Of a stretch of DNA of 64,000 nucleotides, positions 6,235-28,887 are shown one piece after another; the first letter of the stretch is position 1, and each line of letters begins with the position of its first letter. Below the pieces are notes generated by a model. The model saw only the letters and a program-made list of their open reading frames with translations. It had not been told where the DNA came from and did not search any database. Where the stretch lies: the NCBI GenBank assembly GCA_031426335.1, contig JANPLC010000241.1:1828-65827 (forward strand), in the 5' to 3' direction. The position numbers and the translations under genes were made by a program. Source of the stretch: Planctomycetota bacterium (GTDB lineage Bacteria > Planctomycetota > UBA11346).

Positions 6235-6242
6235 GAGCACTC

Positions 6243-6673: not shown

Positions 6674-7321
6674 ATGCGCCATTTTATCGCCGCCTTATTC
6701 CTGCCCGCTCTCTGTGCCCCGCTGGCGCAGCTGAACGCCGAAGACCATGACATCTTCGGCTGGCAACACCTCAATGATCTACGCGTCGGCTACTCAACGA
6801 TGCCGCTGAAGGCCACGATTGATACCAAGGCCAACAACGCTCAGGGATACGAAAAAGACGGACAGCTCCAATCGGGATCGCGTTTTTCTCTGATGTGGGT
6901 GCTGCCGCTTTCGGAGTTGTCCCCTGACGGCGGTGGGCTGTTCGCGCTGGAGGCGTCCTCCACCACCTACCATCAGGACCAGACGCTGGATGATCCCGAG
7001 ATCACACTCAAGGCGTACGCGTTGACGTTCCATCCGGCTCTGGCATGGGCACTGACCAACGAGCTTCACCTGGAGTTGGGTCCATTCGTGGGCATCGGTC
7101 TATCGTCGATCAGCGAAGGGAGCGGACAGGGTACCTATTTCGAATTTGGCGGACGACTCGCGTTTTACTGGACCATCCGTAATCATTTTCAGATTGGCAT
7201 CGACGCACGTTACCTGGGCACGTACGCGCGTCAGAACTTTACCTATGGCGCATCGAGCGAAGATGTGGAGATCCGTACCCAAGGTGCATCCGGCGGACTG
7301 CAACTTGGCTACCGCTTCTGA
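6674..7321 (+). CDS. Outer-membrane beta-barrel protein
   Basis: Signal peptide 'MRHFIAALFLPALCAPLAQLNA'. Alternating amphipathic strands and a C-terminal '...GGLQLGYRF' ending in an aromatic residue, typical of OMP barrels. Confidence 0.6.
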   Translation: MRHFIAALFLPALCAPLAQLNAEDHDIFGWQHLNDLRVGYSTMPLKATIDTKANNAQGYEKDGQLQSGSRFSLMWVLPLSELSPDGGGLFALEASSTTYHQDQTLDDPEITLKAYALTFHPALAWALTNELHLELGPFVGIGLSSISEGSGQGTYFEFGGRLAFYWTIRNHFQIGIDARYLGTYARQNFTYGASSEDVEIRTQGASGGLQLGYRF

Positions 7322-7538
7322 GCTGAATACAGGCACTTGCCGAATTCGACTGGGGAAAATTGGTGTAAAGTCAAATTTTCCCCGCTCTGGTTTCACCGAG
7401 ATCGATGTCGGTGAAAACCGCAGCGCCATTTGATGGTGACCGACACCGCGGAAACATGGACGCGGAGAAGGTCAGGTCACCCAGGTCGCTCCATCGTAGA
7501 CGCTGAGATCGACTCAGTCTGCGGACGTGTGGAGACAA

Positions 7539-7766
7539 CTACCGGCGGAATCCGACCACGCTCCATTCAGCGGGCTCCAGTCCTTGACGATATCCGCGCT
7601 GACATCGACCGCTGGAGCCGGTGCGAGTGGCACCCTCACGCGGCCAGCATTGCCCAGCGGGATCCAACTCCGCGCTGAACGCTGGAGCGACTGATTTCTC
7701 TGCCGTGGTCGCTGGCAGCAACACCACGCACAACAAACCGATGACCGCTCCCAGGCGCGTGCTCAT
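7539..7766 (-). CDS. Hypothetical small protein with signal-peptide-like N-terminus (possibly a gene fragment)
   Basis: ATG at 7766 overlaps the stop of the upstream BNR remnant (ATGA). 'MSTRLGAVIGLLCVVLLPATTA'. The downstream part looks more protein-like in another frame, so it may be frameshifted. Confidence 0.25.
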   Translation of the reverse strand: MSTRLGAVIGLLCVVLLPATTAEKSVAPAFSAELDPAGQCWPREGATRTGSSGRCQRGYRQGLEPAEWSVVGFRR

Positions 7767-8543
7767 CGCGGCCACGTGGCAATAAAGTAGCCGCGGCCGT
7801 TGCTGCCGAAGACCAGCCGCGTGGGATTATGCGGATCCAACGCCAGGACACCGCCACGCAACATCGGCAGACCATCACTCTGCTGCGACCAGGTCACCCC
7901 TCCATAGTTGGTTATCCATATTCCCGTCGCGCGGGTCTGATCGTGGTACGGATTGTCGATGGTGGAGAACGCGATGCGGCGCGGATCACCGGGATCGATC
8001 ACCACCTGACCCATGCGCTCGTGTTCGCGCAGCTTGGTCCAATTGCCATCGTCACAGCGCCACACGGCATTTTCCGTGGCCACCACCATAACCTCGTCGC
8101 CTTTACCGCCCACGGCAACTGGCTCGTCCTCCGTCGGTGCTCACCCACACACCCTTATTGTGGAGTGCGACATAGATGGGCGGGTTGGTTCCCGGTCCGA
8201 AGCCCGACGCCATGACATCGGCGTGGCCATCGATACGGCTGAGTTCTTTCCAACTGGTACCGTCGTCAACGCTCTCCCACACCGCCCACACCGCCTTGCC
8301 GTCTGGATTGCTCCAACGCCGGCGACTGCCACCAAAGGCCAACAGTCGCCCAGCGCGCTGTGGATCGATCAGGATTTTCTGCACCGGCGCGCTGTAACTG
8401 CCCCACGAGACCGGTGGAAAACACTGACGTTTCCATTCCCAATGATGCCCGCCATCACGACTGACGCAGGGTCCACTCATGGTCCCGGCCCACACCACCT
8501 TGGAATCCTTCGGATGAAAGGTGAACTCGCCAACCCCCGCACG
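7763..8543 (-). pseudogene. BNR/Asp-box repeat (sialidase/GH74-like beta-propeller) gene remnant, 5'-truncated and frameshifted
   Basis: Two overlapping ORFs in different frames (8103-8498 and 7763-8113) both carry Asp-box motifs ('SRDGGHHW', 'SVDDGTSW', 'STDGG', 'NYGGVTW'). An upstream in-frame stop lies near 8544, and there is no signal peptide or N-terminus. Confidence 0.6.
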
Positions 8544-8843
8544 TTACTGACTTTCACCAAGCAACGACATCTGCCCCGTATTCCGGTAACCCCACCTACC
8601 GGTCATAGGTAGCCAACGCCAAGCCGCCAAGATGGAGAAAACCATCACAATCCTCGTTCTTGGCGCCTTGGCGTTGGATCTTTCCCCTCGTTCAGTTGAC
8701 ACCCCGGTCACCAGACGACCACCCGACTGCGGGCGAACGAATGGACGTGCGTTGGCCAAAGCCCATGGAGCCCCCGCCTACCAATTCACCTCGTTCGGCA
8801 GATCGTTCACATGGTGGTCTGTGCCACTGTCGGCACGCTGATC

Positions 8844-9155
8844 TCATCGCCGACCGGTATGGATGAAAATCCCGGAGTTGGATTCCGGTTCGCTGCGGGT
8901 GATCACTTCCAACTCAAAGTTGGTGAAGCGCTCAAATGGTTCCTTGCCTCCATTATAAAACAGATGCGAACTGGCCTTGGTCGCATTCGCGCGGATGGCG
9001 CCATCGACCACTGACCACGAACCGGCTTCGACATTGGCGCGCCAGCCATCGAGGTCCTTGCCGTTGAAGAGGTCGCGCCAGCCGTCGTCGGCGGCGTGCA
9101 AGACGGAACAGAGGACGAGGGCAAACCCAGTGAGGGTGCTACGGATCATGGACAT
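8844..9155 (-). pseudogene. DUF1080 (3-keto-disaccharide hydrolase-like) protein, C-terminally truncated
   Basis: Signal peptide followed by 'DGWRDLFNGKDLDGWRA...WSVVDGAI...FTNFELEVITRSEPESNSGIFIH'. The ORF stops after ~103 aa, roughly half a normal DUF1080 domain. No continuation was found in the other frames. Confidence 0.5.
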
Positions 9156-9209
9156 GGACGAACTCCGGTCGGGGTGGAAGCGGGCACAGAATACCAGTGG
9201 ATCAGGGCG

Positions 9210-10718
9210 TCAGGGCACGCGCGGCGGCGTTTGCAACGGAAGCAGCTTGAGCGACTGGTAGGCCACCGCGTCACCGTGATCCTGCAAAATGATGCGCCCG
9301 CGCTCTTCGCGGCCGTATTTCGGCAGACGGGCAAATTTGCTGCGCGCCACGCGCGCCAACCAATCGTCACTGCCCAGGGTGTAGCGCACCGCGAGGGAAT
9401 CGTTCAGCCAATGCTCGACTTCCGCGCCACGCACCACGATCCGTCCGCGATTCCAGCCACCGGCCGGGACCGCCAAGTCACGTGCCGGCGCATACACGGC
9501 ATAGCAGGATCCGGGCCACGTGAGTGGCGTGCGTCCATCGGGATGACGCAGGGCGTCCACCACTTGGTATTCCGCTCCGGTATCATGGGCCTGGGAGTTG
9601 CCGGTGCGTGTTCGGTACAACACCCCGCTGTTGCCACTGGCACTGATGCGCCAGTCGAAGCGCAGGTCGAAATCGCCGAACTCCGCGCTGGTGGCCAGAT
9701 CATCGACGATCGTCGAGGTTGCTTCTCCGACCCGCTGCAGCGTGCCGTCGCGCACCGACCACACGGATGAAATCTTTGGTGAACGGTAACCACGCCAGCC
9801 CGCCGTGCTGGTGCCATCGAATAACAGGATCCAACCGGCAGCCCGTTCCTCCGCGGTCAAGGTGTTGGGCTCGGCAGGTTCTCGTGTCACTGGCGTCACA
9901 GTTGCGATAGGATCCTCCACCCACCCCGTGGCATCAGCAGCAGTGGTTCCACCGGCGTTCAACTGGCGCTCCTCGCCGCGTTGATTGGTTACCCGCACCA
10001 CCCCGGACGTGACCGCTACTGAGGTGATCAGTGGAGCGGTATCGACAATGAAGCGGGTGCCCACGACGGTCACCGTGACGGTGTTGCTGCGCACGCGGAA
10101 AGGATCCACCGTGGTACGTGGCCTCACCACGGCTTCGGCACGTCCGGCGTCGAGCCACGCTCCATCGCCCTCGATTTTTGCCCGACTAGCGGTGGTGAAC
10201 GTCAGCGTACTGGCGTCTGGCCAACGCAGGGTCAGCGGTTGATCCACTGTCACGCGGATACCTGGTGACAGCCGGTCGCCGGTCTGCACCCGCACCTGCG
10301 TGTCCGTGGTTCCGCTGCCACTGACTACTTGCACACGTAGTTCAGCACCTGGCCACCAGCTCCAACCAAGGAGCGATATCAGCAGCGCAGCCGCCACCAC
10401 GGCAGACCGCCTCCACAACGTTGGAACCGTTCGCGCTTTTCCGGTTCGACGGCGAACGCTGCCGAGCGCCGCCCGTTGGCGCTCTGGTCGGCGTGCCGCC
10501 ATCAAGGCACGTACTCGGCGTGCCAGCTGGTCGGCGTCCGGTGGTTGCAGCGCATGCCGCAGCACGGTGGCGATCTCCAACTGGTCGAGCATCGCCGCGG
10601 CCTGATCTGCTTGTGACAAGCGCACGGCCACTTGCCGTCGTCCTGCGTCGTCCAGAGTGCCGTCCAGCCACGCTTCGAGCAGCTCCGTCGGCAGATTGTC
10701 CTGCGCGTTGCCACTCAT
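9210..10718 (-). CDS. Anti-sigma factor (FecR-like) fused to a C-terminal DUF1080 domain
   Basis: 'LLEAWLDGTLDDAGRRQVAVRL' N-terminus, TM 'AVVAAALLISLLGWSWW', FecR-like middle. C-terminus 'GWILLFDGTSTAGWRGY...WSVRDGTL...SGNSGVLYR...GRIILQDHGDAVAYQSLKL' is DUF1080. The ATG overlaps the sigma stop (ATGA at 10715-10718). Confidence 0.8.
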   Translation of the reverse strand: MSGNAQDNLPTELLEAWLDGTLDDAGRRQVAVRLSQADQAAAMLDQLEIATVLRHALQPPDADQLARRVRALMAARRPERQRAALGSVRRRTGKARTVPTLWRRSAVVAAALLISLLGWSWWPGAELRVQVVSGSGTTDTQVRVQTGDRLSPGIRVTVDQPLTLRWPDASTLTFTTASRAKIEGDGAWLDAGRAEAVVRPRTTVDPFRVRSNTVTVTVVGTRFIVDTAPLITSVAVTSGVVRVTNQRGEERQLNAGGTTAADATGWVEDPIATVTPVTREPAEPNTLTAEERAAGWILLFDGTSTAGWRGYRSPKISSVWSVRDGTLQRVGEATSTIVDDLATSAEFGDFDLRFDWRISASGNSGVLYRTRTGNSQAHDTGAEYQVVDALRHPDGRTPLTWPGSCYAVYAPARDLAVPAGGWNRGRIVVRGAEVEHWLNDSLAVRYTLGSDDWLARVARSKFARLPKYGREERGRIILQDHGDAVAYQSLKLLPLQTPPRVP

Positions 10719-11278
10719 GGCGTCACCCGTTCGATACAGTCACGCAGCTGGGAGCGCAGGCGCAGCAACAAGTTTGCCACGCCCGCCGTGCTGCGCCCGG
10801 CACGTTCCGCCACCTGCGGCAGCGGTAGCGCCTCGCCGTAACGCCACGTCAACAACGCACGCGCAGTCGGCGCGAGGTGCTCCAAACAACGATGCAGCCG
10901 CGTCAGTCGGCCGCGCTCATCGTCGTCGGCCTGGTCAGCGAGGCGTGTGAGGGCGGCCTGCGCCAGAGCGGCCTCCAACACCTCCTGAGCCGTTTCACCA
11001 GAGCCCCGGCGTACCTCGTGCAAGTGCCGCAGCGCTAGATTACGCGCGATGCCTTTGACCCACGAACGGAAGGTGCCACCAGCGCGGTAGTCCTGCAGTT
11101 TTTCGAAGGCAGTGGCCAAGGCGTCGTTGACTACTTCCTCGATTAGGTCCGGGTTCGCTACCCGCACCGCGACGAAGGCGCACAGGTCGCCATGCAGCTC
11201 GCCGACGATGGCGGTGAAGGCCGCTTCATCGCCACCGCGCACACGTTGCACCAAGATATCTAAGTCGTCGCTGATCAT
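10715..11278 (-). CDS. ECF-type RNA polymerase sigma-70 factor
   Basis: 187 aa. Region 2 'DLIEEVVNDALATAFEKLQDYRAGGTFRSWVKGIARNLAL'. Region 4 'ARALLTWRYGEALPLPQVAERAGRSTAGVANLLLRLR'. Confidence 0.9.
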   Translation of the reverse strand: MISDDLDILVQRVRGGDEAAFTAIVGELHGDLCAFVAVRVANPDLIEEVVNDALATAFEKLQDYRAGGTFRSWVKGIARNLALRHLHEVRRGSGETAQEVLEAALAQAALTRLADQADDDERGRLTRLHRCLEHLAPTARALLTWRYGEALPLPQVAERAGRSTAGVANLLLRLRSQLRDCIERVTP

Positions 11279-11629
11279 CGGAGCTTATTCACCCGACAGG
11301 TCCATTCATCTCACAGTTTTATGGGAACCTTCCCGCGCGGTTTCCGCTCCTGTTCAATTTTTTCATCCGCCTGAGTGACGTCACGGGGATAGACGTACTG
11401 GAGTCCACAGGCGCGGTCGGCAGACGGTGCCGCCGGAGCAGGTGGGCGGTCAGCCGCAGCTGACGCCGCAGCAGCGGTTGGTGGTGTCGAACACATGGAT
11501 GAAGAGTGGTCTGCCAGGGCGAGCGCTGGTGGCCTCAGCCGTGCGGTAGGCCAACGAGCAGCCGGCTGGCGGAGGGCTGGCGGAGGTGACCAAGCGTGCG
11601 GTGCTGATGACCTGCGGAGACTGGTCCGT

Positions 11630-11661
11630 AAAAGAAAAGAGGCGTCGGGATCACCGACGCC
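11630..11661 (-). terminator. Rho-independent terminator (minus strand)
   Basis: GGCGTCGG (11641-11648) / CCGACGCC (11654-11661) form an 8-9 bp GC stem with a 5-nt loop. On the minus strand it is followed by TCTTTTCTTTT (11630-11640). It lies ~95 nt downstream of the tRNA-like 3' end. Confidence 0.5.
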
Positions 11662-11753
11662 TTATCACCTCAACTCCCTTTTATTCTCGACCGAGACTCG
11701 CGCTTGTTGCACCGGAGTTGCACGGAACGGGAAAGCGAAACTCTTGCGATTAC

Positions 11754-11769
11754 AAAGTTACCCCGCCTG
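11754..11769. repeat. Left copy of a 16-bp direct repeat AAAGTTACCCCGCCTG (candidate att core)
   Basis: Identical 16-mer at 35369-35384. This copy forms the acceptor 3' strand and part of the T-stem of the tRNA-like sequence. Confidence 0.65.
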
Positions 11770-11812
11770 GATTCGAACCAGGAATGAGAGAGCCAAAATC
11801 TCAGTCCGGGGT
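11757..11812 (-). other. tRNA-like sequence lacking a D-arm (Gln-UUG-like anticodon arm, T-arm, 7-bp acceptor helix); not a canonical tRNA gene
   Basis: Minus-strand read: TACCCCG-GAC-TGAGA-TTTTGGC-TCTCT-CATT-CCTGG-TTCGAAT-CCAGG-CGGGGTA-A. It has a perfect T-arm with a GGTTCGAATCC box and a perfect 7-bp acceptor pairing, but only 3 nt where the D-arm should be. Confidence 0.5.
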
Positions 11813-11891
11813 ATTCTAGGGAAGTCGAGCTGTGCGTTTTACTGTGTTTTTACGTATTTCCAATTTCTAGGAATTGCTGGGAAGTCACCCC

Positions 11892-11913
11892 GAGTTGATA
11901 TGGAGTTGATATG
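11892..11913 (+). repeat. Tandem 11-mer GAGTTGATATG x2 (candidate integrase arm-type sites)
   Basis: GAGTTGATATG GAGTTGATATG followed by GGG. Lies between the att core and the integrase start. The same motif pair occurs at 35299-35320. Confidence 0.55.
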
Positions 11914-11970
11914 GGGGTAAAATCGCGGATCCTTCTCTCGTGCCAGTTTCGATCTGGCCAGGAGCGGTGA

Positions 11971-13308
11971 ATGGCACCTCACGACGGTATCTCGATCCAG
12001 GATCGCTGGCTGGACGCTCCGGCCACGAAGGCGGCGGGCAAAGAGCGACTGAAGCCGGTCAATAATCGCTGCGCCAAAGTCAGCCGCTATTTCGTGCGCG
12101 TGTGGGATCCCAATCTTCCAGCCAAGAACCCGGGTGGGAAAATTGGTGGCTACGCTTCAAAGTGCTTCCCGACCGTGACAGCGGGTCATGCCTGGGCTGA
12201 GCATCGTCGCGGCGAATTTCTCAAAGGCACGGCATCGGCACACACGACGACCATGACCGAACTGGGCACCGCTTTCATGACGAGCCTGCGCACGCGTATC
12301 GACGGGGCGGTCACGGAGCGACATCAAGCGCAGGTCCAGCAGGTGATTGATGGTTTGGTGTCGGCTGGAGCGCGCGACATCACCGATCCGTCGTTTCCGG
12401 ACCTCGTGCAACGCTGGCTGTCGGGCCTCCAAGCCCAACGTACTTGGGAAAAGCGCCCACGCCCGGCGTCGCCAGGATTGAAACGGAAGTTCTTGGTCAT
12501 CGCTCGTGCCGTCATGGCGTACGCCCAAGAGCGGCGATTGGTGGCCTATGATCCCCTCGCCGCGATCAGAACCGGTCGGGTCGAGCAGAAGCGCAAAGCC
12601 ATCTTTGCCATCAATGAACTTTCCGCCCTGGTCAGCGATTCAGCCCGCTGGAAGAATCGTGATAAGTGGTCAGAGGCGCGGCGCATGGTCGATGCCCACC
12701 ACGGCAATCAGAAGGAAGCCGCCAAGGCCCTGGGGATATCACCCTCAACCTTGCACTACCGCCTGAATACCCCGCAGGAAGCCGATCCCTGGTGGCTCGT
12801 CGCTGTCTTGCTGACCTACACCGGGTGCCGGATCTCCGAAGTGCTGGCGATGACACCGCGCATGGTGGATCGCCAGGCTGGAGTCCTGCTGCTGCCGGCC
12901 AGCGCAACCGGCAACAAGATGAAGCGCGACCGGCGCATCCGCTTGCAACCGGAATTGATGGCGATTCTGGCAGAAGTGCTTGATGCGGGTGCGCTCGGAA
13001 AGGACGAGCCACTGGTGGGAACCCACATGGTGAAATTCACCAGCGCGAACCTCGGCAACGGATTCAAAGACTATTGCCGCCGCTGCGGCATCGAACCTGG
13101 GCCGCGCGGTCCGCATGCGCTTCGCCACACCTTCTGCGCGCTGATGACCGCACTGGGCGTCTCACCTTTCCTGGTCATGGAATTGGCGGGGCATACGTCG
13201 GCTCAAGTTACCAGATCCTACAGCCAGTCAGCCGAAGAACTCATCGACGGTGTGGCCTGCTGGCCCAGACATGAGCCAGCACAGTTCTATCTTCGTCGAG
13301 CAAAATGA
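11971..13308 (+). CDS. int: Tyrosine recombinase / phage-type integrase
   Basis: 445 aa. Catalytic signature 'TGCRISEVLAM' (Arg), 'HALRHTFCALM' (His-x-x-Arg-His), 'LAGHTSAQVTRSY' (His...Tyr). Adjacent to the att repeat. Confidence 0.9.
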   Translation: MAPHDGISIQDRWLDAPATKAAGKERLKPVNNRCAKVSRYFVRVWDPNLPAKNPGGKIGGYASKCFPTVTAGHAWAEHRRGEFLKGTASAHTTTMTELGTAFMTSLRTRIDGAVTERHQAQVQQVIDGLVSAGARDITDPSFPDLVQRWLSGLQAQRTWEKRPRPASPGLKRKFLVIARAVMAYAQERRLVAYDPLAAIRTGRVEQKRKAIFAINELSALVSDSARWKNRDKWSEARRMVDAHHGNQKEAAKALGISPSTLHYRLNTPQEADPWWLVAVLLTYTGCRISEVLAMTPRMVDRQAGVLLLPASATGNKMKRDRRIRLQPELMAILAEVLDAGALGKDEPLVGTHMVKFTSANLGNGFKDYCRRCGIEPGPRGPHALRHTFCALMTALGVSPFLVMELAGHTSAQVTRSYSQSAEELIDGVACWPRHEPAQFYLRRAK

Positions 13309-13434
13309 ACGCACCACCAGGTGCAGGTGGTTGCTCATCACCGCAAAGCCGGCCACTTTGACCGCGAACAAGCCGGCCAGGGACCGCAACCGCTCATCAA
13401 CCTCGCTCGACGGTGATCGAACCGTCAACCGCAT
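13306..13434 (-). pseudogene. Remnant of an IS200/RAYT-type (Y1/HUH) transposase
   Basis: 'LAGLFAVKVAGFAVMSNHLHLVV' matches the conserved 'yvvMpNHvHLl' block of REP-associated tyrosine transposases. Only ~40 aa remain. The fragment abuts the integrase stop and lacks N- and C-terminal parts. Confidence 0.45.
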
Positions 13435-13435
13435 A

Positions 13436-13526
13436 GGTAGTGTCCGTCAAGTTTCGCAAATTCGATCAGCGGCGTAGCCGGTCAGTGGTTAAGTGATCGA
13501 ATTTGCGAAACTTGACGGACACTACC
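13436..13526. repeat. Perfect inverted repeat (33-bp arms, 25-nt spacer); REPIN-like hairpin
   Basis: GGTAGTGTCCGTCAAGTTTCGCAAATTCGATCA (13436-13468) is the exact reverse complement of 13494-13526. It sits next to the RAYT remnant and at the left edge of the lower-GC cassette. Confidence 0.85.
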
Positions 13527-13586
13527 GGGGAATTAGTCTGAGCTAAGATCATCCATCTAATCGTAAAGTGCCAGTAAACCACGGGC

Positions 13587-13943
13587 ATGCATGTGCATAA
13601 AGAAGAATCCGTAGAGGACAACGAATATATTGTCTACGCTATTTTTCTTTGGCACGTTGCTGACCAAATCAAAAATGGAATGTCGGAAAATAATGCCATT
13701 GAGTATGTCTTGAAAACTGAGTATCCAGACATGGACGGCGCATTGATGAGTGTAGCGCTCGACCGTCATCGCCAAATAAAACATGCCCACCTTGGTGATC
13801 TTACAAGCAGCGTCGTTCTTCCCCTCTACCTCAGATACAAGGTTTCCGCGACTCAAGCAGATTGGTCGCATGGTAGCGACAATGCAAAAATAGCGTCAGA
13901 ACGCATCAAGGCAGAATTCGTACGGCAATTATCTATGCAATAA
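13587..13943 (+). CDS. Hypothetical protein (lower-GC cassette)
   Basis: 118-aa ORF with balanced composition. An overlapping minus-strand ORF (13557-13871) looks antisense-like. No recognisable motifs. Convergent with the immunity gene. Confidence 0.35.
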   Translation: MHVHKEESVEDNEYIVYAIFLWHVADQIKNGMSENNAIEYVLKTEYPDMDGALMSVALDRHRQIKHAHLGDLTSSVVLPLYLRYKVSATQADWSHGSDNAKIASERIKAEFVRQLSMQ

Positions 13944-13949
13944 TTCATC

Positions 13950-14480
13950 TCAAGCTTCCCATGGCAGAGGATAACCAAACGAAGCGATCTTCGGATCCTC
14001 ACGAAGAACATAGTCTTTATCCCCCGGCCATAGTGAATCATCATAATTCAAAGATCTCTCTAGTGCATTCTTAATAAATATGAACAGAGTCGAAGCCGCA
14101 ATATAGCATACGTTCGTTCGTCCTAGTATTCCTTCAACAAAGACGATTGGGGGATCCAATGGATTATCCCCCAATACAGCGACATAGTGATTTCCATGAC
14201 TATCACCAGCAATCGGCAAGAACGAAGCTGATCTGTATTCCGGAATCATACTTGCTATTTTTACGATCTCTTTGGCCCCCAAAAAATCACAGCCAATCAC
14301 TTCCGCTCCATCGACTTTCGTAAGCCATGACTGCAGATCAGCAGGGAACTCCATGCCGATTTCAATCGACGCTTCCTTAATTTCAATTGTCGATGCGCCG
14401 CGATATGCTATCGACCCACCAGAATACGTTCGGGATTTGGCTAGAATCTGGAGAAGAGTGTTTAAATTTGGCTTATTCAT
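13950..14480 (-). CDS. SMI1/KNR4 (SUKH-1)-type immunity protein
   Basis: 176 aa, starting 12 nt after the toxin stop with AGGA 4 nt upstream. 'IEIKEASIEIGMEFPADLQSWLTKVDGAEV' and 'FLPIAGDSHGNHYVAVLG...PPIVFVEG' fit the SUKH pattern (lP.dy..fl...nG ... ia.dg.Gn.y). Confidence 0.75.
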   Translation of the reverse strand: MNKPNLNTLLQILAKSRTYSGGSIAYRGASTIEIKEASIEIGMEFPADLQSWLTKVDGAEVIGCDFLGAKEIVKIASMIPEYRSASFLPIAGDSHGNHYVAVLGDNPLDPPIVFVEGILGRTNVCYIAASTLFIFIKNALERSLNYDDSLWPGDKDYVLREDPKIASFGYPLPWEA

Positions 14481-14492
14481 GATCCTGGCTTT

Positions 14493-17400
14493 CTATGGGA
14501 ACGCAATGAATGTCGCGGCATCTTGTGCAAATTGACCATCTATGAGCGCAGCTTGAGCCTCGACCTCAGCTTTAGTGACGTTACCGACTCCGCCTTTTAA
14601 ACGCAACCATTCCTCCCATGCTTTGGTTATCTTAGCATGGACCTCTATTTTTACAGTAAATACATTCTCAATGGCGTTCGGATTATCAGGGAACAAGTGA
14701 CTGAATTGCAACTCGATGCGATGATGAACTTCGTATCCGGCCTCTTTAAGCCCCTTTCCTCCCAGCAATTTAGTTCCCGCACGTTCTGCCCAAAGTCTTC
14801 TGGCTGCTTCGCGTACGGCATCTCGTTCGAGGGACGACAATTGGCGTCTATTTAGCTGCGCCTTCATGACGCTTACTTGCCACTTCGGAAGTTTAGTAAA
14901 CGTCTGAAAAAAACGCGTTTCTCCCATTCTACCTAAGACAGCCAAGGCTCTTCCCCATGCCTTATCGCAAAAACCACCAACGTTGTGAACCCAAATAGAT
15001 GGAGAATCTTCTTTTGAGTTCGAAGAGGCAACGAAATAGGTCTGCCAATCGGCCACGGAGAAATTGTACGTTGTGAAGCACTGCCCTATCGGGGCCTCTT
15101 CACAGCGCACCGATTCAACTACGGCACATTCATTGCCTGCCATATGCAACTGATAGCCGGGTTTCAATTCACCCATTGGAACCCAGGCACTAAGCTGCTT
15201 AACCCAGAAGGGGTGGGTGGTTGTTCCGACCAACTCAGACGCATCACCATCCATGTTCCCAACATCTAAACGATGATAACGAAGATGGATTAAAGTGGCT
15301 GGCGTGGTCATGAACGTCTGTTCAACGTGTTTGAGCCCTTCCGCACCACTTCGTTCATCACGCGACCAAACCATGTCGCCAACACGAATGTCCTCTATCG
15401 CTTTAAAACCGTTCGAAACTTTCACCCGCGTTCCCGCCACAAAGCAAATCAACTTTGTTGAAGCACGTACCAAAGTCTCCGTCGGGAGGAAGTCGCGCAC
15501 TGCTTGTCGTGCTTTTGGTAATGCTGACTCTTCAACCTTTTTAAATAAGACTTTACCTGATTTTCCGACGACACTTCCTACTTTCGCAAAGGGGACAAAG
15601 TTGACCAGTAAAAATCCACCGTTGACTCCCACCGCAGCCCAGGTGGCATCACCCTCGGGAAGCACAATCCTTTTTCCTCCACCAATGTAACCAGCCCAAG
15701 CGGTAACATCGGCCAATTGATTCATTGCTGACAAAACTTGGTTGGCGCCGTTCATCGCCGTTTGCTCATTTATCGGACGTAACTCCCATCCTATTTCCCT
15801 GGCAATTTTCATCCGCTCCTCTCGGCGAGCTTCGGCAGCAGCATGTATGTTGCCATTCGCCTTATTATAGGCATCAATTGCTGCGGGGAGATCGAAGGTT
15901 CCTTCTTTTTCGTACCTCAGGTCTCCAGCTTTCTTTCCAACAGGTATATCAGTATCACCAGATTTGTATGTGGCGTGCGGGGCAACCCACAAGTACACAG
16001 CTCGTGCCTCCGGAAGATCCCATGTGCGAATGGTCCCTCCGAATCCAACGTGAGCGATGAACGCATTTTGAACGATGCGCTCTACCCCAAGATCTACCCC
16101 TGGGATTACGACATCCTTCGTAAGCGCCGCTATGACGCTGCTGGCTAAACTCAGGGCATTGCCTTCAGGCGCACCCAACAGTTCTGGTATTGTCCACAGA
16201 GGAATGTCATCATCCAAGACGGGATTATCGAGCGCGTTCCAGACCCAACCGGTAGTTTCAGCGTTTTCACCTTGGACCAAGTACCAGGCCATGAGCTTGT
16301 TATCGAGGAATGTTTTGGGGTTGGTTCGAGCAAGTTTGACCTCTGCCGGCGTCAATGAGTCGCTCGTTACATTGCCCGCCACTTGTATTGCGCCCTGTCG
16401 CTTAAGGGTTACTTGGTAACTGCCCTGCACTGTTTTATCAAAGCCGCGTACTTCTTGCGTCGTCCAGGTATCCTCCTCATTAAGTCCAATGACGCTTGCA
16501 CTAATGCGCTGAGCGGCATCAGGAGACACAACTACAGTTACCGTATAAGTGTCGGGCACCGGAGTGGGAAGACGTGATCGCGCAATACCGATGGTAACCG
16601 AGAGATGAATAGTGTCATTGGTGCCTGAGAACGTAACCGGACCTTCGTCCTCACCTTCGCCGCCTTCGGTACCGACGGTTCCATTAACGGGTGCCCACGC
16701 TGGATCTACAAAAACCATTGCATTGCCTGTCGTTGCATCCTTCACGTAATAGCGGTCGTCCTTCTTGATAAGATCAACCCTGGAGCCGTTTTGGAACCAT
16801 TTGTGGCTCGTAATTACAGTGTCAATAATCGACGGCGCTTGTATCGATACTCGATAAGGCGTGACGGTTTCTTGCTGTGCTGGGGAGATAGCAGAAGAGA
16901 CAGACCGCAGGGAGAACGATGGCGCATCGGAAGTAATCGTAGTTGAGTATTGATATTGTGTCGAGGTCACTCCACCAATTTGAATGAAATTTGCAGTGAC
17001 CGCTTTTGATTCAGACATCTTCACCGAAGCTGGGATTGAAACACCCGTGGTAGCGCCAAGAAGATCCACTTGGATCACGGTTGAGCCAACTGTCGCGGTG
17101 AAAACCTTGGTGTCTGCACCTGTCTCGGTCAGTGCGATTGGTGTCGGACTCGGACCCGCGATGTGGTTAGGCAGTGTGATCGCGATCTGGTTAACGACTG
17201 TTGGTGAGAGCACGCCGCTAAGGTCGACTTTATAGGTCATCACTGTTGGAGCAGTAATTGCATTACTGCGAACTATAAGAGCCTCGAAACGGAGCGATGA
17301 AGGACCATTTTCCGTAAATACTTCTTCGCAATACCATTCACCATTCTTCTCGACTGTAGCCGATATGGTGTCAACGAGGATTGCGTTTGTTTGACCGCCT

Positions 17401-20400
17401 TCACTAATGGACACTCGATAAACTGCCCCGACATCCTGGAAGACATTAGAACCAACCGCTGTCTCGGTTAGCGTGACGGTTGCTGGATTCTGACCAATGT
17501 ACTGGTTAGGGATCACTAGCGTGATGGCATCCGTTTGCGTAGCCCGAAGATCGCCATTGAGTTGAATTGCGACCGTCTCTCGGATAACCGGGTTAGGATA
17601 CGTACCATTCATAGTCGCCGAGAAATTGGCACTTCCCTGAATGCCGCTTTCATTCGCATCAGTCACGACATTCATCAAGTGCTCGCCTTCCCAGGCAGGG
17701 ATCGTCACGGAACCGGAGAATGCAAAGCTCTTAGAATACGGCTTCCAGTCTGTTGGACTGCCGCTGACTGTGGATAATGCAATATCCCCCACCCACTTAT
17801 TGTGGTGATAAACATGGACCGACTTCATCGCTGGGGCTTCGAGCAAATTCGCAACCGCATCGGTAACGGTGCCAGATAGTGATACCGTGGCGTTTACACC
17901 GCTGACAGTGACGCTCGGCGATACCGAGATATTAGGCACTGACATAGTTTTGGTAATCTGAGGCGGGTTTTGATCTAACTCTGTCTCATAATTGATTTTC
18001 ACAATCGCCAGCGCCTCCTTCATCCGATGCGCGCCGTTGGCTCCGGCGAATTGTCTGCTTAATTCATCTGGATAGGCGTGCACGGCTCCAACTTTTACAT
18101 CAACGCTGTAAAGTCCCGCCGCGACGTCGGCGCCAATAAATACAGTGAATTCCAATACTTGGTAAGTTCTCATATTTGAATTTTGATCCTGCTCATCTCG
18201 GAGTCGCTGGCTCACAATGGTGACCTTATCGGAACCCGGCTTGACTCCAGGTGCCACAGAAATTGCTTGCGTAACATCCTTCTCTGAGCTTCCATTAATC
18301 TTGATGAACCGAATGTAATCTGCTGACATTCGATTAAAGTCATCAAATCCAAATTCTTTTGAGAGAAAATTCCCCCTAATGGTGAAGGCGGCCGTCATTC
18401 CTGATGCCGCTATATTTGGCGAAAGATTTATAAAGTTGAATACTGGCATGGATTGCCCTACCGAGAATCCAAGAAATGTATCCGTATCCGTCCCATACTG
18501 ATAGGGGCCAAGGCCAACAGTTGCGTAGTCGTTGCCTACTCGCCAGATCTCATAATCGTTGATGTACGATCCAATCGGAGCCAGATCGACTGATGCCGAT
18601 AACGCATCTCCATTACGGGTGACGGGGTGATTTGCGTTTCTTCCGCGATCGACGCGAAGCACTGGGAGCGCGCTCGGATCTCGCACCTGTGAAAGAGACG
18701 GGAAATTAAACTGAATTTCCTGTCGCTTCATGCCTTTTTTAAATGCCGGCTCGTAATTTAATACTGCGGGGCGATAATATCTGTCTGTTCCTGACCCCGG
18801 AGAATAGGGATAATTTTGAATGACCCCGCCATACAACATCGATGCGACATCGATCCCATTTCCCGCAAATGTGACTTGGGTTTTGAACGCCTTTGCGACG
18901 CCCAATAATGGATCGAAGGTCGCAGGATTGACCGTAATTGACGTAACTTGATGGCTATCATTATAGCCATAGTCATACCGTTGTCTTATGTCAAAAAATC
19001 CACCTGGCTCTGACAGGGAGAAAGTTTGAATGACTGACGTTCCTGTCAGCGAATTATACCCGGCCTGTTTAAATGTTGTCGTTCCATGTGCTCCCGAAGC
19101 GGGGTCCGTAAAGGTCGGCAGTCGGCTAAAATTTCCATAGCCAACATAATCTTGGGGCTGAAGGCCACGGAATTCATACTTTTTCTTGACGATATTTCCA
19201 ATCCAGTCCCTAAAGTAATAGGTATCTGTTTTGGCAATCTGATCTTTCTCCGCACCTGTGATATTAACAGGATTGTTCAACGTGAAGGACTGGCCCATTT
19301 GACCACTCGTAGGTTTACTCGGGACGCCTTGCCATGCCTCTTCTGGGTACCAGCCCATAGATAGATCGCTGGGCCAAGAGAGCCAATAGACGGGCGAGGT
19401 GTAACTATAGACGGACTCTGTTGCTGCTTCGACCGATGGATCCACCAACATCGCATCGACATAAAATAAATCCTTTACCTTCTCTGGTGGTACGGGATAA
19501 GGCTGATATGTATCCTCGAGGTAATTACCACATCTATCACTTATATTAACTGCATAGAAGGAGGTGTAACTCCTTGTGTTTAGCGAAAATGGCGTGTGAA
19601 ATCCGTTCAGCTTCCACCCAATAAATTCTCCTCCTTCGTCTACAATATTACTTTTTAGCAGAGGCGCATTATTCTTGTCAAAGACTTTGAACGACGATGA
19701 ATTTTTCAGTCCAGTTACTTCATCTGGCGCCTTGATGGTGACTGAAAAGTCCTGGGCATTGAAGCAAAGTCTTTGCCTATACTTGCGGAGATTCCCGTTC
19801 CCGGTGAACCCGAGTTCTGGGTTGGAATTGAGGAAGATGAATTTTTCTCGCTGATATGCGGATGTTTTTAAAGGTCCGTTCGAAATAACCAATGGCTCAG
19901 TGGGGCTGTCCCACAATGATTTGTCGGCGAGTATTTCGAGCTTAGGCGGCGAGCGATCTACCACGAGTCTTTCTGATAAACGGATAGTTTGCATTGCATT
20001 TTCTTGCGCTCTGGAGGCGTTGGCATATGCGACAAACTCAAAAATCCCTTCGCTAGCGAACTTGAATGACGCCGTTCCGCTAGATCCCGGTATTCTATAT
20101 TCCTGGCCATCCGATGAGCTTACGATTATTTCGGATACGACTCCTCCTCCATAAGATTGAGCTGAAGCGGTGATGAGCACCGGGGTCGAAGGATTTCCGC
20201 CTGTGTTCGTAAAGGAGAAGTTTTCGCCTTTGATTTCACCGTGCTTGTCACCAGTCAAAGAACTGTCTAAGTAGGCAATTGATAGAACTGGCGGCGCCAG
20301 AGGCGTGCCATCTGGGCTCCCCTGTTCTGTCGTTTCCGATCCGGTCGGCCAACGAAGAACAGCGATTTTCTTTGGCCCTAACACTCCGCGGGCATCCTGA

Positions 20401-23400
20401 TATTGCAGAATAATGGAGGCGGTGGTCGTACCGGCTGCTGCCAATGAAGCCCTAATGGCAAACCCGCCGTTGGTTAACGTAGACACCAGAATCAACCCAG
20501 GAGTTGTGGTAGTCGCGAGAACAGCTGTGATATCATGACCATAGGGTACGATCCCTGAAGCCTCTACGACTAACCCTTTTCCATACTGATAGGTAACTGC
20601 GGCAGCGGGCAATTCGTCGCTGTATAGTGTGATTGCGGCGACGGCGCCATCGCTGCCTAGATTAAAATTGCTGCTAGTGCCAAGAGTGACGTCAATCGAT
20701 TCGGCGGTCTCAATTTCACCATCATCGCGCGGCGTGATCGTGATTAGCGAACTGGTTTGGTTAGCCAGGATGGTGACCAATCCGGTAAGGCTGAGGTAGT
20801 CGATGCCGGGTGTGGCCGAACCTCCGACGGTATACGGCACGGTTAGTGTCGTAGTCGAGGGGGCCGACCGCGTCACGGTGAACGTGGCAGTGGTCAGTCC
20901 GGCCTCTGTTGCGACGTTGTCGGTGGCAGAGATACGCACCGTTGGCCGTTCATCGTCACCGATCGTTACGGTTGCACTGCTGTCGATTCCAGGTGTGAAT
21001 GCGCCGGTGACGAGCGTGACGATCACGGTCTTGTCGCCGTTGGCCGTGGCATTATTTACCGGGGTGATGACAAGGTCGGCCGTAACCTCGTTGGCCGCGA
21101 AGGTGATGGCACTGACGTTGGGGTTGAGGGTGTAGTCGGTGCCTAGCGTGGTGCTGGCGGTACCAGTGCGCAGGAAGGGGACGCTCAGCGTCGTGGTGGT
21201 ATCGCCCGTGCGCGTGAATCGAACCGTCCCGGTGACGGGCGTCGCGCCTTCGGCCGCATTCGGCTGGAGCGCCACCACGGTCACCGTGGGGAGGTCATTG
21301 TCAGCGATAGTCACCGTGGCGTTGGTGGTGGCACCAAGGCTGTAGCCGGCTCCTGCCACCAGGGTAACCTTCACGGTTTCGTTGACCTCGGGTAGATCGT
21401 CGTCCGTCGGCGAGATGTAGAGGTCTTTGGTGGTCACGTTGGGGCCCAGCACGATCGGCCCGGTCAGCGTGCTGTAATCGCTACCCGCGGTTGCCGTACT
21501 GCCCGTCGTGGAGATGCCGATCGAGATCGTGGTCGTGGGGTCGCCGGTACGCTGCAGGGTCAGCACACCCAGCGCGCCGCCTTCGACTGCTTGGGCAGCG
21601 GTGGCGGCGATGCTGACAACTGGCGGCTCATTGTCGCTGATGCTAATCTGGGCTTGGGCTTGACCCACCCGGTAGGTCGCCTGCGGCACCAGGGTGAGAA
21701 TCACGGTTTCCGCGACTTCCGCGCCGGAGTCGTTGACCGGCGTAATGTTGATGGGGGCCGATTCCTGTCCGGCGAGAATCGTTACCGTGATGGTGCCAGT
21801 ACCGGTGATGCTGGTTGGCGTGGCCGTGTAATCCGTCAGCGCGGTGGCCGTGCCGGCGCGGGTCAGTGTAACCGTCAACGGATTGGCCGTCGAGCCGCTG
21901 CGCGTCAGCATAAACGTACCCGTATCCGGGCCGGTTTCGCTGACCGCAGCATCGGACACTGCCAAGTCGACGATCGGGAAGTCGTCGTCATGCAGGATAA
22001 TCGCAACGCTGCTGGTGATGATGCCATAGGAGCTGGGTCCAATGGTGGCGGTGATGGTTTCGTCACCTTCCACCGTCGTGTCGTCACGGTTGGTGGTGAT
22101 CGACACGGGTGGCGCTGAGGCATTGCCGGTAGGAATAGTCAATGTGCCCGAGGGAACCGAACTGCTGTAATCCACGTCTAATGTGGCCCCCGACAGGGCG
22201 AACGCGACATTCAGCGCGGGCCCGCTAAAATCACCCGTCCTGGTAACGGTCAGCGTTACTTGCTCATTTGCATTTTCCGTGACCTCGGTGCGGGAAGCCG
22301 TGATCGTCAACGTCGCATCTTCGATCGACGTGCTGGCCGACCAGGAACCGCTGATCGCAAACGGCACCGTGGTGGACGCCTGCAGCAGGAGGATTGCGGT
22401 CTCCGTGCCTTCCACCAACGCGTCCGCCTTCGCCGCTACCGAGATGTCGACGAACGTTGCGTTGGCCGGGATGGTCGCCGTGGTAATCACTGCGGGGGTA
22501 GCGGTGAAATCTGTATTTAGCACCGCATTGCCGCTCCATTGAACTGGAATGGCGAGCGCGCTCGTCGACGTATTGTTTCGGGAAATGCGGATTTTGCCCT
22601 GATTGGCGGTGTTGGGCTCCTTCACCTCGGCGTCGGTGGCTGCGATGGTAAGGGTGCAATCCTTGATGGTGGCGGTCGCGCTGGGCGTGGCACCAATGTT
22701 GTAGGTTGGCACGCCGATCAGGGTCAGCACCACCGTTTCGTCCGCTTCGGTGATCTGGTCACCCAGTGCGGTGAGCGTCACCGTGGTGGAGGTGGCATTC
22801 GCAGCGATGGTCGCGGTGCCGGACAGGGCGGTGTAGTCGAGGCCAGGGGTCGCGGTGCCGCTGACCTGGTACGTGACCGTCAGGGCTGCGGTGGTCGCGG
22901 CTGGGCGGGTAATGGTGAAGGTGGCGTTGTCACCACCGGGTTCGACCGCCGTCGCGTCCGTGGCGCTGATCGTCAGGGTTAGAACTTCGTCATCCGTAAT
23001 GGTGACCGTGGCACTGGCGGCGGCTCCAATGGTGTAGGTCGCCGTTGGTGTGGTCGGGATGATGGTGGCGATGACCGTTTCCGGGCCTTCAACGAGTGCG
23101 TCCTGCACCGGGGTGATGGTCAGGGTAGCCGTCGCCACGCCGGCATTGAAGGTGACCGTGGTTCCGGTGGGGTTTCGCGTGTAGTCACCGCCGGCCGTGG
23201 CGGTGCCGGTGATCGCGACGGAGACGGTCAAGGCATTGGTGGTGCTGACACGCGTCAGCGTGAATACGCCATTGGTGGGTGTGGCCGCTTCGGTCGCGTT
23301 GGGCGTGGTGGCGGCAATGGTGACCACATCATCATCACGAATGGTCAGAGTGGCGACGCTGGGGGTGCCGACGGTGTATCCGGTACCGGCAATCACGGTC

Positions 23401-26400
23401 ACTACGATGGTCTCATCCACTTCGTGGAGGGAATCCTGCTTGGCCACGACCGCCCGCGTCACGGATGCGACGCCAATCGGGAAGGTGATCTTGGTGCCCG
23501 TGTCGGTCGGGTCGGCGTAGTCGGTGTCCACGGTCGCCGTCGAGCCGGTCAGGCTGAGATTCGCCGTCAGGGCTGCTGCCAGCGAGCCGGTCCGGGTGAA
23601 GGTGACGGCGCCATAGTGCGTGCCGTCTTCGGTGACCACTGGGTCGGTGGCCGCCACCTGCACGGTGATGGCGTCGTTGTCAGTGATGGTGACGGTGTGG
23701 ACTTTGATGGTGTCCAGGGCGCCGTTCACCGGTGCACTCAACGTGATGATGGCGGTCTCATTGGCTTCCACCGTGGCGTCATCGCGCACCTGCAGGGACA
23801 GGATCTTGCTGGTCTCGCCTGGGGCGAAGATCAGGGTGCCGTTTGGCAGGTAATAGTCGTCACCATTGCCGGTGGCGGTGCCGGTCAGGGCGTAATTGAC
23901 CGTCGTGGTCAGCGAGTAGGGGAACGACAACACGACCGGGATATCGATCTGGGTTCCGGATTCGCCGACTGATGAGGACGCGGCCTGGAAGGCGATCAGC
24001 GGGGCATCGTTGTCCTTGATGGATACGGTGGCTGCTGCTGGGGTTCCCACCACATAGCCAGTGCCGGAGGCCACCGTCAGCGTGACGGTCTCGTCCGGTT
24101 CGGAGAGCGTATTGTCGACGGCAGTCAACGTCACCGTGGTGCTCATCTGGCCTGCAGCCAGATTCACGGTCGCCGGCAGTGCCGTGAAGTCGGAGCCCAC
24201 CGTTGCCGTGCTGGTGGTCGTCAGGTTGATCGTCAGCGCCGGGGACGTGACACCGGCCGTGCGGATGATGGTGAACAGACCGGTGTCGGGACTGCCTGGC
24301 TCTGACGCGATCGCATCTGTGGCGGCGATCGAGATGCCTTGTTCGTCATCCAGGATGGTGACGGTCGCGGCGTTGGGGCTTCCGACCGTGTAGCCGCTGC
24401 CCGTGGCGATGGTCAGAGTCACCGTCTTGCTGGCTTCCAGCAACGTGTCGTTGATCGGGGTTACGGGGACCGTGGTCGTGGACTGACCGGTAGCGAAGGT
24501 CGCCGTGGCCGGCAGAGCCGTGTAGTCGGCTCCCGCACCCGCTGATCCTCCCGGCGTGACCGTGACCATCAGCGCGACGCCGTTGAAGCCGCTGCGCGTC
24601 AGGGTGAAAGTGCCGGTATTCGACGGCTCAGCTGCATTCGCATCCGTCGCCGCAATGGTGATCGTCGGGAGGTCGTTGTCGGCGATGGTCACGGTCGCGC
24701 TGGCGGTACCGATGAAATAAGCCGCATTGGCCGTGATGGTCGCAATCACCGTTTCGGAACCTTCGTAGGCAGTGTCATTGACCGGCGTGGCCGTGACCGT
24801 CGCCGAGGCGGCGCCGGCCGAGATGGTCACGGAGGTCGTGATGGCGCCATAGTCGCTCACCACCGCCGTACCGCCAAGAGTGAAGACGACTGTCAGCGGG
24901 TTGGTGGTGATGCCCGTGCGCGTGAACGTAAAGGTGCCGTTGTCGGGGCCGGTCTCCGACGCCGCCGCGTCGGTCGCGGCGACCGACACCGTCTGTTCGT
25001 CGTCGACGATCGTCACCGTCCCGGCGATGGTGCCGCCGAGGTAGTAGCCGGTGCCAGTGGTCAGCGTCACGATCACCGTCTCGTTCGGTTCGTTCAGCGC
25101 GTCGTTGACCGGTGTCAGCGTGATGGTCTTGCTCGCAGCACCCGCAGGGATCACCACCGTGGTCCCCAGTGACGTGAAGTCGCTCGCCGACGCCGTCCCG
25201 CTCACCGCCAAGTTGACGGTCAGGGCCGCCGTGGTCACACCCGTGCGCGTCACCGTCCAAGTGCCGGTATCTGGGGTGGCCGATTCCGCTGCGTTGGCAT
25301 CCGTCGCGGCGATCGTCACCGTCTGTTCATCGTCGACGATGGTGACGGTGGCAGCCGACGGTGAACCCGCCGTGTAACCGGCAGCCGTTACCACCGTGAC
25401 GATCACTGTCTCGTTGGGTTCGTTGAGCGCATCGTTGGTCGGCGTCAGGGTCAGCGTCTTGTTCACCGAACCCGCCGGGATCACCACGCTGGTCCCCAGC
25501 GACGTGAAGTCGCCCGCCGACGCTGTCCCACTCACCGCGAAGGTCACCGTCAGAGCGGCGGTCGTCGCGCCCGTGCGCGTGAAGGTGAACGTGCCAGTAT
25601 CCGGGGTGGCCGATTCCGTCGCGTTGGCATCCGTCGCCGCGATCGTCACCACCGCATCGTTGTCGGCGATGGTCACCGTCGCCGCCGACGGCGATCCGAT
25701 GGTATAGCTGCCCGTCGTCAGGGTCATGATCACCGTCTCCGACGGCTCACCCAGCGTGTCGTCCACCGGCGTCACCGTACGCGTCGCCGTCGCCGAACCG
25801 GCAGCGATCACCACCGGCACGGTCACTGACGCGTAGTCACCCGACACGGCAGTGCCGCCCAGCGTGACGTTCACCGTCAGCGCCGCAGCGGTGGTCCCCG
25901 TGCGGGTGATGGTGAACGTGCCGGTGTCCGGCCCCGTCTCCGACGCCGCAGCGTCGGTGGCGGCAATCGATACTCCCTGCTCGTCATCGATGATGGTCGC
26001 CGTGGCGTTGGCGGGGCTGCCCACGGTGTAGCCGGTGCCGGTGGCCAGGGTGACGATCACCGTTTTGTTCGGCTCGGTCAGCGTATCCTGCAGCGTAGTC
26101 ACGGTCAGCGTCTTGGTTGTCGCTCCCGCAGGGATCACCACGCTGGTACCCAGCGCAGTATAGTCGCTGCCCGTCGCGCTGCCCGTGACGGTGAAGTTCA
26201 CCGTTACCGCCGAGCTGGCGATGCCCGAACGCGTCAGTGTGAAGGTCGCGGTGTCGCCCCCCTCGGTCGCGGTTGCGTCTGTCGCCGCGATGTTGATCGA
26301 CGGTGGGCCGACCACGCTGACCACCGCCGTGCCGGTCTTGCCGCCGCCTTGGACCGTCACGTTGTGCGGACCGCCCGCCGTCGCCGATGCTGTGAACAGG

Positions 26401-28805: not shown

Positions 28806-28887
28806 GATAAGCGTTTCCTTCGAATAACAGGCAAGAAACATCGCATTGCCAAGTGACAACGGTCAAGTTGCCACCCAACTGATCACC

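Follow-up and report, generated by a model that had tools for sequence, protein, structure and literature searches.

The giant toxin gene and its parts

We analysed a 64-kb stretch of DNA (hereafter the window) from a Planctomycetota bacterium (assembly GCA_031426335.1, contig JANPLC010000241.1, forward-strand positions 1,828 to 65,827). It carries a giant polymorphic-toxin gene of uneven base composition, which is our subject here, next to the genes of a prophage. The features discussed below are collected in Table 1, and all coordinates are those of the window unless a locus is named. The ATG at 28805 is the likely true start of the open reading frame (ORF); next comes a Sec-type signal peptide, MPIRLCLLAVLSLIWPWAKA, which was recognised by eye in the translated sequence. 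Pfam searches returned two DUF1349 domains, a PKD domain, 12 or more Calx-beta domains and a PT-HINT domain. Using a hidden Markov model (HMM) of the repeat built from the protein itself, we found 17 Calx-beta units (R1 to R17) at aa 855-2750, with a pairwise DNA identity of 42-77%.

Between the repeats and the PT-HINT domain lies a long stretch that is conserved within the family. Its larger part, the core, had no Pfam or NCBIfam match. The pre-HINT region that follows had no sequence match in the PDB, and its AF2 model (pLDDT 48.8) was unusable. Taken together, these ~1,700 aa matched nothing in Pfam, NCBIfam or PDB and had no detectable relatives of known structure. An exact database look-up of the full-length protein returned no record. 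The putative immunity gene starts 12 nt past the stop codon of the giant ORF and belongs to SUKH-1/SMI1_KNR4, a common immunity family. Homologues of the 118-aa ORF on the opposite strand were looked for and none was found.

The combination of an export signal and a repeat region with a variable C-terminal toxin, a PT-HINT domain before the tip and an immunity gene downstream is that of a polymorphic toxin. As judged from these domains, the product is predicted to be Sec-exported, processed by HINT and partnered by a SUKH immunity protein. The tip is 36% identical to that of a homologue, P0122, with which it has the pattern HHRI..L...HL.P..NPN.I.N....V....H in common. It had no Pfam, NCBIfam or PDB sequence match, and Foldseek returned nothing significant. 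The AF2 model of the tip placed a beta-beta-alpha element at the HH motif with a low mean pLDDT of 58.6; the tip is possibly a His-Me-finger (HNH) nuclease, an assignment we hold with low confidence. From what is known of the family, the long beta-sandwich array would serve to display the C-terminal part on the surface of the cell. HINT would then release the tip, if the protein works like other Sec/HINT polymorphic toxins (PMC3482391). The released tip, possibly an HNH/His-Me nuclease, would poison competitors that do not have the SUKH protein, and the producer would be protected by its own.

Table 1. Features of the window discussed in the text (aa, positions in the giant protein; GC3, GC content at third codon positions)
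Feature	Position	Strand	Remarks
DNA methyltransferase	62629-63948	minus	
HNH/replication protein	in prophage part, 31200-64000	minus	
Large terminase	56167-58311	minus	
Portal	52551-54179	minus	
Head protease	48783-50147	minus	
Tape measure	41585-43738	minus	
Beta-helix tailspike-like protein	39039-41087	minus	
Tail J	35428-38253	minus	
VapE-type helicase/primase	32568-34010	minus	
Two tail-fibre / tail-fibre-assembly-like genes	28888-31150	minus	PHROG tail-fibre families, E 1e-10 to 2e-11; Gly_rich_2
Giant polymorphic-toxin ORF	14493-28859	minus	4788 aa; from ORF list
Calx-beta repeats R1-R16	20955-26297	minus	aa 855-2635; self-built repeat HMM; GC3 0.69-0.88, like surrounding DNA
Hybrid last Calx-beta repeat R17	20610-20939	minus	aa 2641-2750; GC3 0.74 in first half, 0.57 in second half
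Breakpoint zone	20727-20891	minus	aa 2657-2711; bounded by chi-square breakpoint and GC3 change point
Low-GC block	13433-20726		~7.3 kb; GC ~0.48, GC3 0.48; compositionally uniform
Core, family-conserved	16281-20609	minus	aa 2751-4193; beta-rich by prediction; holds conserved GANGAHRMKEAL...WKPYAKHFTFSGSV segment (alignment A1)
Pre-HINT region	15447-16280	minus	aa 4194-4471; motifs GWVWN, PLWTLP, DPFAW, ATWAAV (alignment A3, 9 family members)
PT-HINT (pretoxin Hint), predicted self-cleaving releasing peptidase	14982-15446	minus	Pfam PF07591, E 1.3e-21, aa 4479-4626
C-terminal toxin tip	14496-14981	minus	aa 4627-4788; pattern HHRI..L...HL.P..NPN.I.N....V....H..IT.AW
Immunity gene, SUKH-1 / SMI1_KNR4	13950-14480	minus	176 aa; GC3 0.40; Pfam PF09346, E 1.5e-7
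Hypothetical ORF in low-GC block	13587-13943	plus	118 aa; convergent with immunity gene; gene also called there on Logan contig L001
Perfect hairpin	13436-13526		arms 13436-13468 / 13494-13526, 33 nt, 100% complementary; loop 25 nt
Possible truncated Y1 (HUH) transposase / RAYT-like remnant	13228-13434	minus	68 aa; 2 nt from hairpin
Tyrosine integrase	11971-13308	plus	445 aa; Phage_integrase E 4e-16, HTH_8; PHROG integrase E 7e-32

Composition and relatedness across the last Calx-beta repeat

The GC content in 1-kb windows was 0.46-0.52 over 13-20 kb and 0.62-0.67 on either side. Within the giant ORF, GC3 in 100-codon windows was 0.70-0.91 up to codon 2700 and 0.41-0.58 beyond it, while across this step GC1 was unchanged and GC2 slightly lower. 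A maximum-likelihood fit of a single GC3 change point placed it at codons 2698-2711 (window ~20,726-20,765), within R17, the 17th and last Calx-beta repeat. GC3 fell there from 0.807 to 0.483 with a log-likelihood ratio (LLR) of 278.8, compared with a maximum of ~9 in simulated homogeneous series of equal length; the 2-log-likelihood support interval was 20,720-21,002. No further change point was detected inside the low-GC coding tract (LLR 1.6), and a second break at the HINT/tip boundary, of the kind left by a classic tip swap, was rejected on this value. The tract was found to be part of a single block spanning the PT-HINT domain, the tip, the SUKH-1 gene, the opposite-strand ORF and intergenic DNA, with its left edge on plain GC at 13,433 (0.62 to 0.47) and host-like DNA on both sides.

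Codon usage gave the same division. The relative synonymous codon usage (RSCU) of the 5' part of the giant ORF correlated with that of the phage and chromosomal genes of the window at r 0.91-0.93; that of the low-GC block was uncorrelated with every other gene set in the window (r 0.03-0.27). A mild GC3 shift was also seen in the high-GC part, at window ~23435 (codon 1808; 0.83 to 0.77, LLR 7.9, at about the 1% null level), which could reflect either an earlier exchange or differing repeat sub-families.

A sequence-only reading of the window had described, from hand counts, a composition break inside the giant gene, with the switch in the last Calx-beta repeat and a lower-GC tract running leftward through the tip, the immunity gene and the hypothetical ORF. 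It had offered a computed GC/GC3 profile as a possible refutation, and the profile has the sharp step described above. The break is real, its position had been read correctly to within a few tens of bases, and the tract is one uniform block down to 13,433. The large size of the exchanged part also stood, although its figure of ~2,050 codons is corrected here to ~2,080-2,130.

In order to compare the two parts with their relatives, we used aa 2760-3959 as the query of an exhaustive HMMER search of 1.84 billion proteins. Only 53 representatives were found, indicating a very rare family. Word-indexed searches with the low-GC part returned no homologues apart from a single weak HINT match, and a search with the N-terminal 850 aa gave domain-level matches to DUF1349 but no orthologue. 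A scan with the conserved-core alignment found 1 locus in GTDB genomes, 1 in JGI metagenomes and none in IMG/VR, its back-translated pattern being too narrow to collect the family.

Of the relatives, P0123 (locus L004), which comes from another sample, is closest to the high-GC part. In a three-way alignment with P0122 (locus L005), identity to L004 was 0.68-0.73 in repeats 8-16; within R17 it dropped to 0.58 in the first half and to 0.40 in the second, and in the core it was 0.27-0.43. For P0122, identity was 0.40-0.69 before the junction, 0.25-0.33 after it and 0.33-0.52 beyond aa 3700. DNA similarity to L004 (blastn, 70%) ended at window 20,862. Three-sequence informative sites grouping the studied protein with L004 made up 64% before aa 2697 and 39% after it, and beyond aa 3500 the studied sequence grouped with P0122, reversing the 5' relationship. 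The maximum chi-square breakpoint was at aa 2657 (chi2 64; permutation 95% value 10, maximum 13.9). The GC3 profile of L004 itself was almost flat (best LLR 9.7); this locus has a different C-terminal module and, in place of SUKH, a neighbour with an FGE-sulfatase domain.

Synonymous composition and discordant relatedness are independent signals, and both fall in R17, one repeat of 110 codons. An alignment of homologues was the second possible refutation that had been named, and it does not describe a uniform, co-evolving gene: L004 is conserved before R17 and divergent after it. With both the chi-square breakpoint and the GC3 change point in R17, the proposal that a repeat unit was the recombination site is supported.

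At the other end, the outer edge of a perfect hairpin coincides with the left edge of the low-GC block. The lower-GC tract had been said to stop exactly at this hairpin next to a RAYT remnant. The boundary held, but 13,433 is the outer edge, so the hairpin itself is on the low-GC side. It folds at -44 kcal/mol (z = -11.3), its arms have 45% GC, and no second copy was found in the window or in IMG/VR. A canonical terminator was rejected as its identity, as there is no T-run. The remnant was where it had been placed, but its identity comes from a Y1_Tnp match that stays below threshold (E 0.014; 16 bits, cutoff 23 bits) with an HUH-like NHLHLVV motif, in a truncated frame without the C-terminal part that would hold the catalytic Tyr. 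Its similarity to Y1_Tnp stops where the integrase gene ends. As the integrase stop codon coincides with this loss of similarity, the integrase segment may have truncated a Y1-transposase-like gene on the other strand. The composition of the integrase gene fits the surrounding DNA. No tRNA, tmRNA, Rfam family or direct repeats resembling attachment (att) sites were found near it, including in the 700-bp gap upstream of it at 11279-11970. Any role for the hairpin or the remnant in the exchange is speculation.

The junction was compared with the Logan assembly of run SRR20217183, three contigs of which are 100% identical to the window. One of these (15,956 nt, k=31) runs from upstream of the start of the giant gene and is unbranched across the 20.7-kb junction; the part compared here extends to window 20,149. 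Because Logan contigs follow conservative k=31 paths, a repeat shared by two organisms would be expected to give a branch and a break. Two other contigs end within the hairpin arms, as a 33-nt inverted repeat would lead one to expect with this k. There is also a break between two contigs at window 16513-16522, in the low-GC part of the ORF, with a 10-nt overlap and no obvious repeat; it may reflect low coverage or strain variation.

Origin of the 3' module

The giant gene is recombinant. Codon usage in its 5' 8.1 kb is that of the DNA around it; this part comprises the signal peptide, two DUF1349 domains, PKD, Calx-beta repeats 1-16 and the first half of R17. Its 3' 6.2 kb, with the second half of R17, the ~1,450-aa core, the pre-HINT region, PT-HINT and the tip, is foreign. 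The 5' part and L004 have a fairly recent common ancestry. The un-ameliorated GC3 of the foreign part (0.48 vs 0.81) suggests that the exchange was evolutionarily recent. We consider it likely that a 7.3-kb module comprising core, HINT, toxin and immunity gene was replaced, guided by homology, from a diverged lower-GC member of the family. The sequence-only reading had proposed C-terminal cassette displacement, which the GC3 step and the discordance with L004 support; the unit also includes the ~1,700 aa of core and pre-HINT region.

In such a replacement, an ancestral resident gene of the family would have lost its whole 3' module to DNA of the diverged member. The first crossover would have occurred inside the last Calx-beta repeat. 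All long family members, P0122, P0123, P0135 and P0139 among them, have a Calx-beta repeat immediately before the core, so R17 would offer homology in register, which would explain the in-frame product with an intact domain. The second crossover would have taken place in or next to the hairpin (13.43-13.53 kb). Such an exchange would keep the reading frame and the domain register and bring in a matched processing domain, toxin and immunity gene, so that the cell stays protected. R17 is collinear with the last Calx-beta repeat of both P0122 and P0123. P0122 is collinear with the studied protein from Calx-beta repeat 8 of the latter through R17, core and PT-HINT to the type of tip, so the domain order across the junction is ancestral to the family and no new fusion. 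The SUKH gene downstream of P0122 is 26% identical to that of the window (E 6e-18). A blastx search of 13527-13950 against all family proteins found no meaningful displaced orphan tip or immunity fragments downstream, which argues for replacement and not for an insertion that pushed the old end aside.

Several points weigh against this replacement. Searches for the low-GC block brought up neither a donor nor a close relative (>45% identity), and transfer is therefore deduced from composition and discordant similarity only. There is a single close relative of the 5' part, itself 28% diverged, and the fall in similarity could be overstated by saturation and a higher evolutionary rate in the core. 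After the junction, informative sites grouping the studied protein with L004 are still marginally the largest class (144 vs 127 vs 101). The GC3 change point (2698-2711) and the chi-square breakpoint (2657) are ~40-55 codons apart. The participation of the hairpin in the event is putative, and the Logan reads are probably the same set as those behind the window, making that comparison independent in method but not in data.

We infer the direction of the graft, and it could have been the reverse: a complete low-GC toxin locus would have come first, its 5' 8 kb being overwritten later by a resident high-GC paralogue or orthologue. N-terminal arrays are strongly variable in the family, and the two tail-fibre-like genes upstream of the giant gene also have a lower GC3 (0.49-0.55), so that lower-GC DNA flanks the high-GC tract on both sides. 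The RSCU of these upstream genes, however, correlates at r 0.03 with that of the low-GC block (0.3-0.5 with host genes), and a common origin of the two was rejected on this value. They resemble ordinary mosaic phage tail-fibre genes and are a second, independent mosaic patch. The low-GC block, moreover, is an island whose far side is bounded by host-like DNA with the RAYT remnant and the integrase, and the reverse order requires more events. We regard it as improbable.

A gene inherited vertically as a whole, in a family whose 3' parts are intrinsically lower in GC3 and faster evolving owing to domain-specific mutation or selection, would need no transfer; the step and the fall in similarity would then be heterogeneity of rate and composition. 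GC3 indeed declines toward the 3' end, from host-like 5' arrays, in four other members: P0125 (L009; 0.93 to 0.68 at codon 2113, LLR 188), P0122 (0.81 to 0.64 at codon 2501, LLR 78), P0124 (L011; 0.75 to 0.54 at codon 1785, LLR 62) and P0176 (L010; 0.79 to 0.68 at codon 1680, LLR 31). The slight excess of sites shared with L004 after the junction points the same way. But the step in the window is abrupt, within ~50 codons, and lies at synonymous sites; it persists across the immunity gene, the ORF on the opposite strand and intergenic DNA, with a sharp end at 13,433. Further, the nearest relative is nearly without a step, and beyond aa 3500 the protein is closer to P0122 than to L004, the opposite of its 5' part. 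The breakpoints also vary among members, as would be expected if 3' modules of different lengths had been exchanged repeatedly. Vertical inheritance without transfer is very unlikely on this evidence.

An assembly chimera, with metagenome assembly having fused a ~64% GC contig to sequence of an organism of ~48% GC, is very unlikely: the source is apparently a metagenome (Logan contig indices >1.1 million), the full-length protein is on record nowhere and both Logan contigs break at the hairpin, but a contig of full identity crosses the 20.7-kb junction unbranched, the Calx-beta repeats have, because of their low DNA identity, no long k-mers in common to mislead an assembler, the join is in frame, in register within a domain and collinear with P0122 and P0123, two independent false joins (at 20.7 kb and 13.4 kb) would be needed, and the 91-nt hairpin is shorter than a typical read.

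The toxin family, known systems and the phage context

The favoured replacement can be set against what is seen in the rest of the family, of which one member was found in a Planctomycetota metagenome-assembled genome. Homologues in other samples have chromosomal contexts. Their N-terminal arrays are built from DUF1349, LamG, PA14, Ig, PKD and Calx-beta domains. The conserved unannotated region precedes either PT-HINT with a variable tip or a different large C-terminal module. The tip is of the HH type in the studied protein and in P0122 and of the WHH/colicin-DNase type in P0125; that of P0124 has a weak ADP-ribosyl-cyclase-like match just under threshold (24.8 bits, cutoff 25 bits). In P0122 the tip has a GC3 of 0.43 and the SUKH immunity gene one of 0.36, in a genome (L005) with a GC3 of 0.92-0.97. 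A separate low-GC patch was also observed within the core of this locus, at locus positions 13400-14800.

P0123 and P0176 are without PT-HINT and end in a different module of ~1,300 aa. In both cases a gene with an FGE-sulfatase domain follows directly (L004 11718-13574, L010 19236-20279), possibly an immunity or maturation factor. In L004, the closest homologue of the high-GC part is split into two overlapping ORFs (2-3199 and 3159-11708) and is either a frameshift pseudogene or the product of a sequencing error.

Polymorphic toxins are thought to diversify by short swaps of the C-terminal tip at dedicated junction motifs. In the gene described here, an ordinary structural repeat was the site of exchange for 43% of the protein, a conserved region for delivery and processing included. 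This suggests that, in a little-known family, the unit of exchange can greatly exceed the textbook cassette in size and flexibility. C-terminal displacement is known from the Rhs and CdiA polymorphic toxins (Jackson et al. 2009, PMC2935791; Zhang et al. 2012, PMC3482391). As there, the N-terminal part is conserved and host-like and the C-terminal part foreign, composition is discontinuous at the junction, relatives are alike N-terminally and diverge abruptly at that point, toxin and cognate immunity gene move together, and tips differ among members. Unlike the 100-300 codons of an Rhs or CdiA tip, the unit here is ~2,100 codons plus 1 kb downstream and takes in the HINT peptidase as well as a non-toxin core conserved across the family. 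The breakpoint lies in a structural Calx-beta repeat ~2,000 codons before the tip and not at a demarcation motif of the VENN or PxxxxDPxGL kind, and there is no displaced orphan tip/immunity pair downstream. The event is a large-scale variant of C-terminal displacement in a rare family of giant toxins and involves no new principle; what is noteworthy is the size of the exchanged unit, the breakpoint in a structural repeat and the phage-adjacent location.

With its signal peptide, long repeats, PT-HINT, C-terminal toxin and SUKH gene directly downstream, the protein resembles the 'T2SS/Sec' class of Zhang et al. (2012, PMC3482391), who list planctomycetes among the lineages with HNH-type tips, Imm-SUKH and HINT. 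It differs from that class in belonging to a very rare sub-family with a ~1,700-aa unannotated core and pre-HINT region, some members of which swap HINT and tip for the ~1,300-aa module and its FGE-sulfatase-domain partner. This conserved region may belong to an undescribed delivery mechanism in Planctomycetota-like bacteria.

Upstream of the toxin gene, window 31200-64000 is a siphovirus-like prophage with all genes on the minus strand. The two tail-fibre-like genes lie between it and the giant gene, directly upstream of the latter on the same strand with a gap of 28 nt. A phage from IMG/VR (IMGVR_UViG_3300043409_001777, our L008) is 87-89% identical over the tail module at window 35,368-46,114 and ~75% identical on to 48,295. 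The similarity ends ~60 nt past the tail J stop codon, where L008 has a serine recombinase on the opposite strand. The window instead continues with ~22 kb of other genes, among them the giant toxin, and then reaches the tyrosine integrase. The toxin locus therefore lies in the variable arm between tail genes and integrase, the usual place for phage cargo. Phage genes were found at 28.9-64 kb and the integrase at 12.0-13.3 kb; neither att repeats nor a tRNA was found, and the far end of the phage is beyond the window.

A toxin-immunity pair after two tail-fibre-like genes, on the same strand and before an integrase, is reminiscent of the 'moron' cargo of temperate siphoviruses and raises the possibility of a temperate phage carrying such a weapon. 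Unlike such cargo, the homologues elsewhere are chromosomal, and a cargo gene of 14.4 kb would be exceptionally large. A more far-reaching proposal, which we offer tentatively and think doubtful as a whole, is that the exchangeable unit of this rare PVC-type toxin family is a complete 6-7 kb 'warhead' (core, pre-HINT, HINT, tip and immunity gene) and not the toxin tip. It would circulate among lineages of differing GC and become attached to host-adapted adhesin arrays through recombination in the last Calx-beta repeat. The 14.4-kb gene would then be lysogenic-conversion cargo of a temperate siphovirus, with the hairpin and the Y1-transposase remnant marking the other end of recombination.

Finally, the tyrosine integrase was found to have a Fis-type helix-turn-helix (HTH_8, aa 242-265) inserted before its catalytic domain.

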